Shown: positions 2,672-9,791 of the stretch, piece by piece
Numbering within the stretch: the stretch's first letter is position 1
How the letters are laid out: each line of letters starts with the position of its first letter
Assembly (NCBI GenBank): GCA_031376385.1
Contig: JANMDQ010000018.1
Location: forward strand, 12,673-76,672
Length of the DNA stretch: 64,000 nucleotides
Source of the DNA: Sphingomonadales bacterium
GTDB taxonomy: Bacteria > Pseudomonadota > Alphaproteobacteria > Sphingomonadales > Sphingomonadaceae
Direction: 5' to 3'
Position numbers and translations under genes: made by a program
Notes under the pieces: generated by a model
Seen by the model: only the letters and a program-made list of their open reading frames with translations
Told to the model about the DNA's origin: nothing
Databases searched by the model: none

Positions 2672-3954
2672 TTACAAGTCCCGCCTTTCGCGGTAAACGC
2701 TATGCGGTGCTCGGGCTGGCGAGGTCTGGCATTGCCACGGTGCGCGCATTGCTGGCGAGTGGCGGCGAGGTTGTGGCTTGGGATGAGCGGGAAAAGGCAC
2801 GTGCCGGACTTGGTGAAGTGGAAGGGCTTTTCTTTGCCGACCCGATGACCATTGATCTGAGCGGCTTCGACGGCATTGTTGTGTCGCCTGGCGTGCCGAT
2901 CAACCGGCATCCCATTGCTGGTGCAGCGCGGGTCGCCAATGTGCCTCTCATTGGTGACATCGAACTGTTTTCAATGGCTCGCGCCACTTTGCCTTTGCAC
3001 AAAGTGGTTGGCATCACAGGAACAAACGGCAAATCGACCACGACCGCGCTCATACATCACATCCTGAAAACGGCGGGTGTTCCGACGATGATGGGCGGCA
3101 ACATCGGCCTGCCTATTTTGGCGCAGCAGCCGCTACCGGAAGGCGGCGTCTACGTGCTGGAACTGTCGAGCTTCCAGATCGACCTGACCTATTCGCTCGA
3201 TTGCGATGTGGCGGTGCTGCTGAACATCACGCCGGATCATCTCGATCGGTACGATGGGTTTGAGGCTTATGCGGCTAGCAAAAGAAGATTGTTTGAAATG
3301 CAATCATCCGATCATCCAATCGCGGTTTCAACGAGCACGCAAACGGCGCTTGATCAGTTGAACGGATTTGACAGGACGATCTGGAGAATGTCGCCCGACA
3401 TCGATGAACCGTTGCAGGCAAACTGGCCGTCGCTTCAAGGACCGCATAACCTGGAAAACGCTCAACTTGCGCGTATTACATGCTGGTGCCTCGGCCTTAA
3501 CCATATCCAGATCAACAACGCATTAGCGACCTACCCTGGTCTGCCGCACCGCATGGAACGATCCGCCGAAATCAACGGCGTCCTTTACGTCAATGACAGC
3601 AAGGCCACCAACGCGACATCAACCGCGCCTGCGCTTGCAGCCTATCCGGCGATCCACTGGATCCTCGGTGGGCGCGCCAAGACCAATGAGCTTGATGCCT
3701 GTGCGCCGCATTTCGGCAACGTCCGCGCGGCCTATACGATTGGCGAATCAGGCGCGATGTTTGCGGAGCTTCTTTCACCGCATATGCCAACGCAAAACTG
3801 CGTCACGTTAGAGGTGGCGGTTGAGGCCGCGCGCGCCGCAGCGCAACCCGGTGAAGTGGTTCTTCTCTCCCCCGCCTGCGCATCCTTTGACCAGTTCAAA
3901 GATTTTGAAGCACGCGGCGAAGCATTTCGTTCGTTAGTGGAGGCCTTGGCATGA
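2668..3954 (+). CDS. murD: UDP-MurNAc-L-Ala-D-Glu ligase MurD
   Basis: [44 protein letters not shown]; GTG start overlaps mraY TGA (GTGA). Confidence 0.96.
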
Positions 3955-5168
3955 CGACAGCAACTGCCCCTGTGACGCCCGCACCTGCACGTCCGCGTGG
4001 AAAAGTGGCGGCGCGATTGGGTCGTGCTGACCGTTCGGCCTCAGGCTTGTGGTTCTGGGAAATCGACCGCGTTCTCTTGACGCTGGTGATTGTTCTCCTG
4101 TCGATTGGCCTGGTCGCCATCGCTGCGGCTTCGCCTGCCACGGCACAGCGCTATTCCGGCGGCAGCGTCACGATTTCGCCTTTGCTCTATTTCTGGAAGC
4201 AATTGATCTGGGTTGGAATTGGAGTGCCGGTGATGATCGTCGTTTCGATGATGCCGCATAAGCTGGCGCGGCGTTTTGCGATGGGCGGTGCGGCATTTTT
4301 TAGCGTCTTCATCGCTGTTGCCCCCATGATTGGCATGGAAGTCAACGGCGCAACGCGCTGGATCGATGTGGGCATTGGCCAGTTTCAACCTTCCGAATTC
4401 TTTAAACCCTTTTACATCGTGACGCTGGCCTGGTTCTTGTCACTGCGCGCAAACGATCCTGATCTGCCGGTCTTTGCGCTGTCGGGATTCATCACAGTGG
4501 CCATCGCTGGCTTCCTGATGCTCCAGCCCGATTTTGGTCAGACGATTATCTTGCTGACCATGTGGATGGCGATGGTCATGATCGCGGGCATCCCCGGACG
4601 TTTCATCACCATGCTGCTGGGCAGCGGCGTTTGCTTTGTCTTGCTGGCCTATGTCACTTATCCGGTCGCCACGACGCGGATCAATAACTTCCTGTTTGGG
4701 GACGGGGACAGTTATCAAGTCGATATGGCCCACGCGACGATCAGCGGCGGAGGGTTCCTTGGCACCGGCCCGGGCGGCGGCGTTCACAAATTCCGTCTTC
4801 CAGAGGCCCATACTGATTATATCTTCTCTGTCATCGGCGAAGAGTTTGGCTTGATTGCCTGTATGGCCGTGGCGTTCGTATTCCTTGCCATAGCGGTCCG
4901 CGTGTTTCTGCGATTGCTTGATGAGGAAGATGGTTTCATCATCCTTGCAGCTGGCGGCCTTGCAATGGAAGTCGTTGTGCAGTCCATGATCAACATGGCG
5001 GTGAACGTCGGAATTGCGCCTTCCAAGGGCATGACACTGCCTTTCGTCAGCTACGGCGGATCGTCGATGCTCGCGCTGTGTATTGGCTGGGGTTTGCTCC
5101 TCGCCTTCACGCGCAAAAACCCCTATCTTGGTCGCTCACCCTATGTGGTCAAATGGAGGGATAAATGA
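3951..5168 (+). CDS. ftsW: SEDS glycosyltransferase FtsW
   Basis: GATRWI, QPSEF, LQPDFG, LPEAHTDYIFS, LPFVSYGGSS. Confidence 0.96.
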   Translation: MTTATAPVTPAPARPRGKVAARLGRADRSASGLWFWEIDRVLLTLVIVLLSIGLVAIAAASPATAQRYSGGSVTISPLLYFWKQLIWVGIGVPVMIVVSMMPHKLARRFAMGGAAFFSVFIAVAPMIGMEVNGATRWIDVGIGQFQPSEFFKPFYIVTLAWFLSLRANDPDLPVFALSGFITVAIAGFLMLQPDFGQTIILLTMWMAMVMIAGIPGRFITMLLGSGVCFVLLAYVTYPVATTRINNFLFGDGDSYQVDMAHATISGGGFLGTGPGGGVHKFRLPEAHTDYIFSVIGEEFGLIACMAVAFVFLAIAVRVFLRLLDEEDGFIILAAGGLAMEVVVQSMINMAVNVGIAPSKGMTLPFVSYGGSSMLALCIGWGLLLAFTRKNPYLGRSPYVVKWRDK

Positions 5169-6325
5169 GCGTCAAGCGGCATTACGTATTGGCAGCAGGC
5201 GGCACTGGCGGGCATATGATGCCGGCCCACGCCCTAGCTGTTGAACTGATGGAGCGCGGCCATCATGTTGCGCTTATTACGGATGAGCGCGGTGCGAAAA
5301 TCCCTGGGCTGTTTGAAGGCGTTCCCGTCCACATCCTTCCTGCGGGTCGCATGGGCAGCAATCCGCTGAGCCTGTTCCGCGCGGCGCGCGCGATCTGGGC
5401 AGGAAGAGGGATGGCGCTGCGGCTCTACGAAACATTTCAGCCGAGCGCCGTGATTGGATTTGGTGGCTATCCCGCACTTCCGGCGTTGCTGGCCGCATTC
5501 AAAGCCAAAGTGCCTACCGCAATCCACGAACAAAATGCAGTGCTGGGTCGCGTCAATCGCTACGTCGCGGGTAAGGTTAACGCGATTGCGCTTGGCTTTC
5601 CGGCTGTCCAGCGTTTGAAGCCGCGCGATGCCGGCAAGACCCACGTCGTTGGCAATCCCGTTCGCCCGGAAGTGCTCGCTTTGCGAGACCAACCCTATCC
5701 AGCGATTGACGGCGAAGGTGTGCTGCGGGTGATGGTCATTGGCGGCAGTCAAGGCGCTTCGATCCTGTCTGAAATTGTTCCAGATGGCCTCGCGATGCTT
5801 CCCCCCAGCCTCAAACGCCGTCTGCAAGTCACCCAGCAATGTCGCCCCGAAGATATCGATGCCGTGCGCAAACGCTATGCCGACCTTGCCATTCCCGCAG
5901 ACTTGGCGACTTATATGGAGGACATGCCGGAGCGACTGGCCTGGACGCACCTCATGATTGCGCGGTCCGGCGCGTCAACCATTGCAGAATTGACTGCCGC
6001 TGGCCGTCCGGCAATTTTTGTGCCCTTGCCCAGTGCCACTGACGATCATCAGACGTTCAACACGGCTGAAATGGTTGAATCCGGCGGCGCACGGATGATC
6101 CATCAGCGCAATTTCACGCCTGTCGAGCTTGCCAAGCAAATGCAGAAACTGGGCCTAGAAACCGAAGGGCTGATCGTGGCGGCGAAGCGCGCCTGGACCT
6201 GCGGGCGGCCCCATGCGGCAAAGGACTTGGCGGATATTGTCGAAGGCCTTAGCAAGCCCCCGGTGCAGGACGGCCTTGGCGCAGAAGGCTGGCAGGGCGG
6301 CACTCTTGCCGGGGCAAGCGCATGA
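5165..6325 (+). CDS. murG: GlcNAc transferase MurG
   Basis: AGGTGGH, GFGGY, HEQN, GGSQGA, RSGAST. Confidence 0.97.
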
Positions 6326-7731
6326 ACGGCGTCGGAACCGATATTGGCACGATCCACTTCATCGGCATTGGCGGCATCGGCATGTCGGGTATTGCCGAAG
6401 TGATGCACAATATGGGCTATAAGGTGCAAGGCACTGACATTGCCGAAGGCTATGTGGTGGAAGGCCTGCGCAAGCGAGGCATCCCTGTGATGATTGGTCA
6501 TGACGCGACGAACTTGGGCGACGCGGCTGTTGTCGTGACGTCCACTGCAGTCAGCCGGAAAACCAACCCCGAAGTGGAAGCCGCTTATGAGCGCCGCATA
6601 CCAGTGGTGCGCCGCGCGGAAATGCTCGCTGAACTGATGCGGCTAAAACGCACAGTCGCCGTTGCGGGCACTCACGGGAAAACGACGACGACATCCATGA
6701 TTGCAGCGATGCTGGATGCTGGCGGGATTGACCCCACTGTCATCAACGGCGGGATTATCAACCAATATGGCTCCAACGCGCGTCTCGGTGATAGCGACTG
6801 GATGGTGGTTGAGGCCGATGAAAGCGACGGCAGTTTCCTGCGGCTTGATGGCACCATAGCCATCGTGACGAATATCGATCCCGAACATCTTGATCATTAC
6901 GGCGATTTTGACGGGGCAAAGAAAGCCTATGTCGAGTTCATCGAAAATGTGCCGTTTTACGGCGTGGCGATCCTTTGCCTAGATCACCCTGAAGTGCAGG
7001 CCATCATCCCGCGCATCCGGGACCGGCGGATCACGACTTACGGCTTTGCGGCGCAGGCGGATATCCGGGGCGAAAATGTCACGCCCGTTCCCGGCGGCAA
7101 CCAGTTCGATGTCGTCGTGCGGTCGCGCGACGGTGTCCAACGCACGATTAGCGAAATCATACTTCCCATGCCCGGACGGCATAATGTGCAGAACGCGTTG
7201 TCGGCTATTGCAGTTGGCCTTGAAATGGGGATGAGCGACGCGGACGTTGCACGCGGATTTGCCAATTTTGGCGGCGTCAAACGGCGCTTTACCAAGGTGG
7301 GCGAAATGGATGGTATTACCGTGATCGATGATTACGGCCACCACCCTGTTGAAATCCGTGCCGTGCTTTCAGCGGCACGTGAAGGGGCTACGGGCCGCGT
7401 TATCGCCGTCTGCCAACCGCACCGCTATTCGCGTCTTGGCGGATTGATGGAGGAATTTGCGACAGCCTTTAACGATGCAGACATGGTCTACATTGCGCCT
7501 GTTTATGCCGCTGGCGAAGCGCCGATTGAAGGCGTGGATGCAGCTGCACTTGTTGGCAAAATCAAACGGCGCGGGCATTATTCCGCAAGCGAAGTCGCCG
7601 ACGCGGCAGAACTGGCGCGGGTGATTGCCGACGTTGCTAAGCCTGGCGACACAGTTGTGTGTCTGGGGGCCGGGGATATCACGAAATGGGCCGCTGGGCT
7701 CGCTGATGCCGTCCGCGGGGTGCGGGGATGA
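6322..7731 (+). CDS. murC: UDP-MurNAc-L-Ala ligase MurC
   Basis: [32 protein letters not shown]. Confidence 0.98.
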
Positions 7732-8726
7732 GTTGTGAACGCGGCACTTTACTCCCCTCCCCTTCAGGGGAGGGGTTGGGGGTGGGGAGTGCCCAACACT
7801 CTGCGCTCGACGTGACACTCCCCACCCCAACCCCTCCCCTGAAAGGGAGGGGCTTAGTGCGAGGCAAACTCACCCCCAACGCCCCGCTCGCCCCACTGGT
7901 CTGGTTCAAATCGGGCGGGCGCGCAGAGTGGTTGTTCGAACCCAAAGACACAGCTGACTTGCAACATTTCTTGCGCACTCTTGATCCTGCCGTGCCTGTC
8001 ATGGCGTTGGGCCTGGGTTCAAACTTGATCGTCCGCGATGGCGGCGTGCCCGGCGTTGTCGTGCGGCTGGGCAAAGCTTTTGGGGCGGTTGCGCCGCAGG
8101 ACGATTTCGTCCTGTCTTGCGGGGGCGGGGCGTCTGGCATTCTTGTGTCATCGACTGCGCGCGACGCAGGCATTGCGGGCCTTGAATTTCTGCGATCCAT
8201 CCCTGGCACGGTCGGGGGCTTCGTGCGCATGAACGGCGGCGCTTACGGGCGTGAGACGAAGGACATCCTTCTCGAGTGCGATCTTGTTCTCCGGTCGGGG
8301 GACATAGTGACGCTGTCGGCCGATGACCTTGGTTACACTTATCGCCATTCTGAACTGCCCGCAGGAGCGATTGTTGTTGCGGCCCGGTTTCAAGGCCAGG
8401 CTGGCGTTTCTGCCGCCATTCAGGAGGAAATGGACCGCATTTCTGCCGGCCGTGAAGCGTCCCAACCGCTCAGATCCAAAACCGGCGGATCGACCTTCAA
8501 GAATCCTGAAGGTCACAAGGCCTGGGAACTGGTTGACGCGGCGGGATGTCGAGGCCTGCAAATCGGTGGTGCGCAGGTTTCAGAAAAGCACACCAATTTC
8601 CTGATCAACACAGGCGACGCGACCAGTGCGGATATCGAGGCGCTGGGCGATGAAATCCGCGCACGCGTGCTGGCCGCGTCCGGGGTGGAATTGCAGTGGG
8701 AAATTCAACGGGTGGGGGTGAAATGA
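7728..8726 (+). CDS. murB: UDP-GlcNAc-enolpyruvate reductase MurB, with a palindrome-encoded N-terminal insert
   Basis: [37 protein letters not shown]; ATGA overlap with murC; alternative in-frame GTG start at 7857. Confidence 0.95.
7754..7852. repeat. REP-like nested inverted repeat (family A) inside the murB 5' region
   Basis: Arms 7754-7791 and 7816-7852 are reverse complements with one mismatch and one indel; each arm carries its own CCCCTCCC-N-GGGAGGGG hairpin. Confidence 0.9.
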
Positions 8727-8747
8727 TGATCCGTTGTTTAAAACTCA

Positions 8748-8837
8748 CCGTTCGAATTGAGCTTGTCGAAATGCTCCCTTCTCGCTGTGTAACCAAAAAT
8801 CAGAAAGGGAGGACTTCGACAGGCTCAGTCCGAACGG
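8748..8837. repeat. REP-like inverted repeat (family B) in the murB-ddl spacer
   Basis: ccgttcgaattgagcttgtcgaaatgctccctt ... aagggaggacttcgacaggctcagtccgaacgg form an imperfect long stem. Confidence 0.85.
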
Positions 8838-8864
8838 CGTTTTTGGGGTTGACGGAGATTGCAG

Positions 8865-9791
8865 ATGACTAACGCCACCCTCATCCATGTCGCCGTCCTG
8901 ATGGGCGGATGGTCGAGCGAACGCTCGGTCTCGCTTTCCAGTGGCAATGGTATTGCTGAAGCGCTCGAACGCGTCGGCTACCACGTCACACGGATCGACA
9001 TGGATCGCGACATTGCGCTGCGCCTCTTTGAGATCAAGCCAGATGTCGTTTTCAATGCGCTCCACGGCACGCCCGGCGAAGACGGCACGGTGCAGGGCAT
9101 GATGGACCTGATGGGCATCAAATATACGCACAGCGGCCTCGCCACATCCGTCATCGCGATTGACAAACAGCTGACCAAACAGGCGCTGACGCCGCACGGC
9201 ATCCGGATGCCTGGCGGCCATATTGTGAAAAGCGAAAGCCTGTATCTCAGCGACCCGCTGCCGCGCCCTTATGTGCTCAAGCCTGTCAATGAAGGCTCTT
9301 CTGTTGGCGTCGCGATTGTGACGAAGGAAAGCAATTACGGTGATCCCATCGGTCGTGATGCCGCGGGGCCTTGGCAGACCTTTGATGAATTGCTGGCTGA
9401 ACCGTTTATCCGCGGCCGCGAATTGACCGTCGCCGTGCTGGGCGACCGCGCGCTGTGCGTCACAGAATTGCAGCCTAAAACCGGCTTTTATGATTTTGAT
9501 GCCAAATATACCGACGGAATGACGGATCATATCTGCCCGGCAAACATCCCAGCCGATGTCGCCACTGCGATGATGGAAATGGCGTTGAAGGGCCACCGCG
9601 TGCTGGGCTGCAATGGCACGTCTCGGTCAGACTTTCGCTGGGATGATGAAAAGGGTGTCGAAGGCGTCTTCCTTCTCGAAATCAATACGCAGCCCGGCAT
9701 GACGCCCCTAAGCTTGGTGCCCGAACAGGCCAAGCAGATGGGCATATCTTACGAACAATTGGTCGATATCATCGTGAAGGACGCCCTCTAA
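8865..9791 (+). CDS. ddl: D-alanine-D-alanine ligase
   Basis: GGWSSERSVSL, ALHGTPGEDG, KPVNEGSSVG, EINTQPGMT. Confidence 0.97.
   Translation: MTNATLIHVAVLMGGWSSERSVSLSSGNGIAEALERVGYHVTRIDMDRDIALRLFEIKPDVVFNALHGTPGEDGTVQGMMDLMGIKYTHSGLATSVIAIDKQLTKQALTPHGIRMPGGHIVKSESLYLSDPLPRPYVLKPVNEGSSVGVAIVTKESNYGDPIGRDAAGPWQTFDELLAEPFIRGRELTVAVLGDRALCVTELQPKTGFYDFDAKYTDGMTDHICPANIPADVATAMMEMALKGHRVLGCNGTSRSDFRWDDEKGVEGVFLLEINTQPGMTPLSLVPEQAKQMGISYEQLVDIIVKDAL

Follow-up and report, generated by a model that had tools for sequence, protein, structure and literature searches.

The window analysed here is a 64,000-nt stretch of contig JANMDQ010000018.1 from a Sphingomonadales bacterium, whose genome measures 3.12 Mb on 36 contigs with a G+C content of 56.7%. 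According to the list of open reading frames (ORFs), the window contains the dcw (cell-division and cell-wall) cluster, in which ftsW (3951-5168), murG (5165-6325), murC, murB and ddl (8859-9791) are followed by ftsQ and ftsA. In this study we examined a hairpin repeat at the 5' end of murB, close behind the four nucleotides ATGA in which the murC stop codon and the murB start codon overlap. Translational coupling at overlapping stop and start codons of this kind is a general bacterial mechanism. The murB ORF contains the Pfam domains FAD_binding_4 and MurB_C, and the nearest named relatives of its product were found within Sphingomonadaceae, among metagenome-assembled genomes (MAGs) and isolates of Novosphingobium, Sphingorhabdus and Sphingopyxis.

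Between the murC-coupled ATG (7728) and the conserved VRGKLTP motif lies a 99-nt nested palindrome (7754-7852) that keeps the reading frame and contains no stop codon, exactly where the original prediction had placed it. As listed in Table 1, the palindrome consists of two inverted arms separated by 24 nt; over 37 nt the arms are 76% complementary, and over the inner 33 nt this value rises to 91%. Each arm is itself a hairpin, with CCCCTCCCC-TTCA-GGGGAGGGG at 7754-7775 on the left and CCCCTCCCC-TGAAA-GGGAGGGG at 7831-7852 on the right. The pattern CCCCTCCC N3-6 GGGAGGGG occurred twice in the window, while 0.00 occurrences were expected. The predicted RNA fold of 7720-7880 reached -105.3 kcal/mol compared with -65.5 ± 4.7 kcal/mol for shuffled sequences (z = -8.6), and none of 200 shuffles folded as well. 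The right end of the palindrome supplies a GGAGG motif that is followed by 6 nt (GGCTTA) and then by an in-frame GTG. This Shine-Dalgarno (SD)-like motif had been described as buried, and it was indeed paired in the predicted long fold as well as in a local hairpin (7831-7852), which reached -20.5 kcal/mol even with the left arm held open.

Table 1. Features at the murC-murB junction, with positions counted from the first nucleotide of the window.
Feature	Position	Strand	Basis and remarks
murC (UDP-N-acetylmuramate-L-alanine ligase)	6322..7731	+	ORF list; tail conserved in relatives up to xTGA; TGA stop at 7729-7731 overlaps the murB ATG
ATGA overlap, translationally coupled murB start	7728..7731	+	ancestral in genus and family, from the xTGA comparison in relatives
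murB, long ORF of 332 aa	7728..8726	+	residues 1-9 native-like, about 10-43 repeat-coded, conserved MurB from about 43-44
Inserted repeat, about 105 nt	7748..7856	.	net gain of 102 nt over the 23-nt ancestral spacer; ends uncertain by a few bases; based on empty junctions and family copies
Left end unit	7754..7791	+	C-run 7754-7762, loop TTCA, G-run 7767-7775, TTG, second G-run GGGGTGGGG 7779-7787, AGTG
Non-repeated 24-nt spacer between end units	7792..7815	.	position occupied by the DUF559 gene in the cassette form
Right end unit, inverted copy	7816..7852	-	CACT, CCCCACCCC 7820-7828, AA, CCCCTCCCC 7831-7839, TGAAA, GGGAGGGG 7845-7852
GGAGG, SD-like	7846..7850	+	belongs to the repeat end; paired in the long and local predicted hairpins
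GTG, Val codon of conserved VRGKL	7857..7859	+	possible secondary start; GTN at the Val position in most relatives

The element does not carry an enzyme gene of its own: its terminal inverted repeats bound about 105 nt, and there is no ORF in the 24-nt spacer. Its ends were set by family copies elsewhere in the genome, which read TAAAG-CCCCTCC... and ...GGAGGGG-CTTTA. The flanks are ...CACTTTAC on the left and GGGGCTTA GTG on the right, and a possible TTA or TA duplication is not separable from the element end TAAAG/CTTTA. Identification of the element as an intrinsic terminator was rejected, as it has no T-run.

Comparison with same-genus relatives showed how the palindrome came to lie there. 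Twenty of the 23 relatives possess the xTGA overlap of murC and murB followed by a short spacer before VRGKL, which measures 23 nt (8 codons) in 18 of them and 20 nt and 2 nt in one each. In the source genome, xTGA is followed by 125 nt before VRGKL, in frame, and the spacer is thus 102 nt (34 codons) longer. Because 20 of the 23 relatives carry only 7-8 codons at this place, the element is an insertion, and it lies in the coding 5' end of murB, downstream of the ancestral coupled start. The remaining three relatives (G009, G020 and G010) all harbor in-frame inserts. G009 (L003) has a copy of the source repeat at an identical position and in an identical frame, with CTG as the Val codon, and the repeats of G020 and G010 are unrelated to the source element. 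Alignment of the murB 5' ends revealed no relative with an equally long, non-palindromic N-terminus. The suggestion that MurB carries about 35 repeat-derived residues is therefore supported by the comparative data, in which 34 codons are added without a stop and the relatives start at the same xTGA.

The added residues lie outside the recognizable enzyme. Homology to PDB entry 9dtk begins at MurB residue 43, and in the AlphaFold2 model residues 1-41 have a predicted local distance difference test score below 50 and no secondary structure, while the MurB core is folded. The genome closest by MurB (G020, the MAG Sphingomonadales VAR_78_metabat_496; L002, identical to L031) was seen to have a 186-nt in-frame insert at the same murB position. 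In this insert the 21-nt unit CACTCCGCTCAGGCATCACCC, which encodes SPHSAQA, is present four times in tandem, and a repeat of the GCTTCGACAAGCTCAGCCTGAGCGG type makes up the rest.

The junction was then surveyed across Sphingomonadaceae with 194 distinct murC-murB junctions; many of the genomes are MAGs, and the counts are not phylogenetically independent. In 107 junctions the arrangement was plain, with xTGA and 7-8 codons before VRGKL, and in the other 87 (45%) it contained a repeat. The inserts came from many palindromic families, which can be told apart by the peptides they encode (PEPVEGL/FDKLSPNG, VRVERSRDT/STSLDTNG, FVPSEVEG/PRLRSGRT, HAELVSAS/TLKQVQGD and ILPACGEGD, in addition to the source element). 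The frame of the coupled start was unbroken in 81 of the 87 invaded junctions. In 52 of these it continues into murB as a stop-free fusion. In the other 29 it forms a bridge mini-ORF, which opens at the murC xTGA and is closed by a second xTGA overlapping an in-frame start codon; the repeat then lies in a small ORF with coupling on either side. This second start lay 15-48 nt before the Val codon in 25 of the 29 bridge cases, like a native murB start, and 3-6 nt including the TGA were duplicated in bridge-type junctions of other families.

The preference for one frame was also evident from smaller counts. In the first set of 34 junctions with inserts, the frame in use was free of stops in every case, and each of the other two frames in only 18 and 13 cases, respectively. 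Where the native xTGA start was kept, the spacing classes were 25 (2 mod 3, bridge), 5 (0) and 3 (1); the difference between class 1 and class 2 gave a binomial p of 3e-5 at the locus level, with kinship ignored. Conservative single-linkage clustering of the inserts yielded 24 clusters with fusions and 14 with bridge ORFs, and the pattern therefore does not derive from one lineage. The simplest reading is that the coupled start would stay active after invasion and that arrangements sending ribosomes out of frame over the murB start would be lost. The comparative evidence thus points to selection on the termination-reinitiation coupling of murC and murB, and it suggests that hairpin repeats are filtered for translatability.

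Six of the 87 junctions break the rule of continuity, and four of these contain an extra small gene of 64-75 aa. A conserved gene of this size was observed between murC and murB in L061, L084, L202, L208 and L216 (MSDWFSTAIEMQREIL... / MNDFFAPFVAMQKQLI..., with the end ...W..W..LWG.K). Its own start is also coupled to the murC stop, and a Pfam search with it returned no family.

It might be argued that the repeat is a neutral and untranslated spacer, that murB is expressed from a separate promoter and start further downstream, and that the open frame is a coincidence of high G+C content. The end unit is stop-free in five of the six reading frames, and in a few junctions (L243, L084 and L208) repeats do lie in an uncoupled spacer, both of which are compatible with such a spacer. 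However, the other two frames across the insert contain stops (two besides the murC TGA in one, one in the other), and the coupled frame is continuous in nearly all invaded junctions as described above. In addition, promoter and terminator scanning of 7500-8000 found no promoter-like site in or adjoining the element and none within 7700-7860, and the ancestral start at 7728 is intact. We thus consider a neutral spacer highly improbable.

A role of the hairpin at the RNA level is compatible with our preferred explanation, in which the repeat is translated as part of MurB. The hairpin might serve as an RNase III target, as a barrier to 3' exonucleases or as an elongation brake, and so set the murC:murB ratio irrespective of the start that is used. 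The stem of about 37 bp with its z-score of -8.6 would suit such a function. Two further points agree with it: REP (repetitive extragenic palindromic)-type hairpins are known to stabilize upstream mRNA, and about 30 of 106 relatives show invasion of the adjacent murB-ddl junction too. On the other hand, neither a terminator-like T-run nor a promoter-like site was found in or beside the element, and an E-value search of 7000-9000 against Rfam returned no known RNA family at threshold, the only hits being sub-threshold matches of microRNA models to generic hairpins. Moreover, 20 of the 23 same-genus relatives do without the element, and the presence of many unrelated families at the site fits tolerance better than a specific evolved regulator. 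A hairpin that acts mainly on the transcript is accordingly judged distinctly unlikely.

The murB-ddl spacer of the source genome (8727-8858) holds a palindrome at 8746-8839 of the GAGCTTGTCGAA...TTCGACAGGCTCAGTCCGAACGG type. It belongs to a different family from the repeat at the murB 5' end, and the two palindromes of this region are thus unrelated, as had been proposed. Most relatives have murB directly adjoining or overlapping ddl; the spacers of 46-553 nt in the approximately 30 invaded cases show that this junction is often invaded as well.

As to the start used for MurB, the sequence comparisons make it probable that the main product begins at 7728 and bears a disordered, repeat-coded tail, while a restart at GTG 7857 is conceivable but less likely. 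In-frame murB copies of the repeat family were found six times, and in five of them the codon at the Val position is not a start: CTG (L003), ATC (L097), CCG (L109), CGT (L064) and CTG (L169). The repeat of L097 has the same point and frame as that of the source genome, and those of L064, L109 and L169 have the opposite arrangement; L064 and L109 contain in-frame GTG codons 1-5 codons upstream of the Val position. Similarly, 11 of the first 23 fusions had no in-frame ATG, GTG or TTG at the Val codon or up to 12 codons upstream, and three more had only TTG without an SD-like motif. In those genomes it must be the fused protein that functions.

The events at the locus can be pictured as follows. 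A copy of the repeat entered the gene about 21 nt past the ancestral murB start that is coupled to murC, inside a dispensable 8-codon N-terminal peptide and immediately before VRGKL. The murB gene is essential, and its translation normally depends on ribosomes that finish murC and reinitiate at ATGA; because of this, only an insertion that keeps the frame would be survivable. The ATGA and the murC tail are intact, and the hairpin base lies about 21-25 nt downstream of the ATG, which would put it outside the footprint of the initiating ribosome. Ribosomes would thus still start at 7728 and melt the hairpin while elongating, and the product would be a MurB with a 34-residue disordered N-terminal tail rich in Pro, Gly and Ser. 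A minor short form might arise from GTG 7857 via the GGAGG of the repeat, most plausibly right after an upstream ribosome has opened the hairpin. The hairpin may also have an effect on the level of MurB.

The original prediction had offered a second possibility, in which the repeat supplies the ribosome-binding site. MurB would then be made mainly from GTG 7857 via the GGAGG at the right end, and the frame from 7728 would be a leader whose murC-coupled translation melts the hairpin. The distance of 6 nt between GGAGG and the in-frame GTG is suitable for this, and the bridge-ORF class shows that reading across a repeat as far as a restart site is a common arrangement at the murC-murB junction. 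In addition, right ends of this family are followed after 4-11 nt by the starts of murB (L084 and L216), of ruvC (L138) and, in the source genome itself, of dnaG, and a start in L121 is preceded by one at such a distance too. Nevertheless, GTG is only one of four Val codons (GTC, GTT, GTA and GTG) used at the conserved Val in relatives, the GGAGG comes with the repeat end in every copy, and the five other in-frame murB copies have the codons given above at this position. The site is also predicted to be inaccessible, being paired in both the long fold and the local hairpin, and a ribosome that reads through in the same frame would not encounter a stop codon and would thus have nowhere to terminate and reinitiate. 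Hence the repeat as a translation-initiation region is physically possible and has precedents in L084, L216, L138 and dnaG, but for the reasons of Val codon choice, intrinsic GGAGG and local hairpin just given it is not needed at this site, and we regard it as an unlikely source of most MurB.

Several points weigh against the fused protein as the main product. Of the six genomes with in-frame copies, only the source genome has a GTG in place of the Val codon, and the GGAGG stands at a suitable distance from it. The repeat ends found before real starts elsewhere mean that genes can apparently be expressed from behind the hairpin. According to the folding prediction, a hairpin of -105 kcal/mol lies within coding sequence, where it could delay or arrest ribosomes. 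The survey counts suffer from shared ancestry and from the many MAGs among the genomes. Finally, survival in frame is equally expected if only the frame mattered, for instance for a leader peptide, and not the fused product.

The palindrome is not confined to murB. A genome-wide search with BLAST and a small nhmmer profile detected about 14 significant copies of an end unit at seven or more loci, usually as inverted pairs 24-50 nt apart. The unit measures about 38 nt and is built from CCCCTCCCC, a loop, GGGGAGGGG, TTG and GGGGTGGGG. A strict pattern of this unit was present in 38 of 51 genomes of the genus, and the reversed-pattern control gave 0 matches. On contig C11 (44344-44783), inverted end units enclose a 135-aa ORF that encodes a DUF559 protein (Vsr-like PD-(D/E)XK; Pfam E = 1.5e-29). 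We inspected 30 DUF559 loci of the genus, and most of them were bracketed by inverted hairpin repeats; at least 12 were bracketed by the murB-type unit, in at least five chromosomal contexts and in both orientations. The murB palindrome is thus a gene-less copy, resembling a miniature inverted-repeat transposable element, of a small low-copy repeat family, and it corresponds to the cassette of end, DUF559 gene and end without its gene. The literature search on DUF559 returned no paper tying this domain to repeats.

The DUF559 cassette of C11 is located between a yqeY-like gene and dnaG, and its right repeat end lies 9 nt before the dnaG ATG. A cassette of the same type occurs at the same site in relatives in the opposite orientation. 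A REP-associated tyrosine transposase (RAYT) was rejected as the partner enzyme: the sole Y1_Tnp gene of the genome (PF01797, C18:44473-44802) has no murB-type units within 500-600 nt. Tandem GTTCCGGGGACACTATA repeats occur on either side of this gene, which is of the RAYT or IS200-like kind and represents a separate repeat-plus-enzyme pair.

The murB-type family is certainly read in frame in uvrA as well (C22:34518-34620, minus strand), where it encodes ...SPSPPEEGLGVGTVQSESGSDKPHANPSLQGEGL... within a stop-free ORF of 1012 aa, and this case also speaks for the long form of MurB. PDB entry 2r6f aligns with both sides of the insert, and about 48 extra residues lie in between. The uvrA matches of 22 among 24 relatives were split and skipped the insert, and 11 empty sites read at the sequence level proved to be a variable linker of 22-24 aa. 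The uvrA element replaced part of a variable linker, and there is therefore no clean empty site. The same linker carries the murB-type family in G012 and another palindrome in G005.

Other places with related repeats were recorded as well. An ORF on the minus strand of C11 (80457-80999), which we take to resemble the C-terminus of the glycyl-tRNA synthetase beta chain, has a further stretch that looks like a repeat and keeps the frame (PSPLEGEGQRREAAQGEGAGVPNVGAPDPSPGAGAPSSPSRGEGL). An ORF on the minus strand of C22 (109300-110130), whose N-terminus presumably resembles a Mu-type transposase, has single end units of related repeats in frame (GPGPSPSPEGVGS), and another lies just upstream of its start. 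At least in the relative L102, a murB-type end unit (CCCACCCCAACCCCTCCTCTGAAGCGGAG...) is situated just before the murC start, and the murG-murC junction is therefore also invadable.

The 4-nt stop/start overlap of two essential genes is thus invaded in about 45% of the sampled species of one family, with translation nearly always continuous across it. The setting of a repeat in the coupled overlap of two essential genes, together with the family-wide regularity of fusions and bridge ORFs, looks new; the literature search found no description of repeats in coupled gene overlaps, nor of such a regularity. For the annotation of MurB, both the start position and the shape of the protein change in this gene, which offers a clear example from nature of how a tail encoded by a selfish element is tolerated by an essential enzyme. 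A broader scheme, which we put forward only tentatively and with more doubt than confidence, is that the murC-murB overlap of Sphingomonadaceae might be a recurrent landing site for unrelated hairpin repeats, across which selection obliges the ribosomes leaving murC to translate. The outcome would be either a repeat-coded N-terminal tail on MurB or a bridge mini-ORF bounded by an xTGA overlap on each side. In this scheme the repeats, whose C-run and G-run ends encode Pro, Gly and Ser in five of six frames, would be built to survive translation, and the DUF559 nuclease enclosed by such ends would spread them. If true, it would be a nuclease-plus-repeat system parallel to REP/RAYT, routinely remodelling the ends and linkers of essential proteins.

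Four known systems were compared with the element. Rickettsia palindromic elements (RPEs) are palindromic repeats of 100-150 bp that lie in frame in housekeeping genes and thereby add a peptide to the encoded protein (PMC10969869). The present family is similar in that its palindromic repeat is in frame and stop-free in murB and uvrA, adds a peptide to the host protein, and is inserted where the protein is predicted to tolerate it, here the MurB N-terminal tail and the variable UvrA linker. The likeness is one of function, whereas host order and base composition differ: the murB element is G+C-rich with C-run and G-run ends, and it resides in a free-living sphingomonad with about 14 end units. 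It also differs from RPEs in being inserted within a translationally coupled gene overlap and in that murB-type ends bracket a DUF559 gene. No such partner gene is known to us for RPEs.

In architecture, the murB unit recalls the BoxC/PIT/TMECO repeats, which are G+C-rich intrastrand triplex motifs and often form inverted pairs (Holder et al. 2015, PMC4666352). In a TMECO unit, a short loop (N3-6) joins a 9-nt C-rich block to its G-rich complement, and a loop of 3 nt leads on to a second G-rich block; in E. coli such units reportedly lie only between genes, and a partner gene is not described for them (PMC4666352). The murB unit has the same three-block layout, CCCCTCCCC TTCA GGGGAGGGG TTG GGGGTGGGG, and likewise occurs in inverted pairs, but copies of it lie inside ORFs (murB and uvrA) instead of between genes. 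Exact TMECO membership was rejected by a regular-expression search, because the murB units depart from the published consensus CCCTCNCCC N3-6 GGGNGAGGG N3 GGGNGAGGG by two positions per block. The one exact match to this consensus in the genome (C15:559197) is not among the murB units.

With REP/REPIN-RAYT systems the family shares short dispersed hairpin repeats in inverted pairs, which also flank a single small enzyme gene; the enclosed gene, however, encodes a DUF559 PD-(D/E)XK nuclease and not a Y1 (HUH) transposase. Compared with ordinary ATGA coupling, the xTGA overlap of murC and murB is family-wide, and invaded junctions either keep the start or duplicate the overlap on both sides. The difference is that the coupling is here apparently carried across a selfish repeat, as a fusion or as a bridge mini-ORF. 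Probably not a member of any of these repeat families by sequence, the element is closest to RPEs by function, to BoxC/TMECO by architecture and to REP/RAYT by genome organization.

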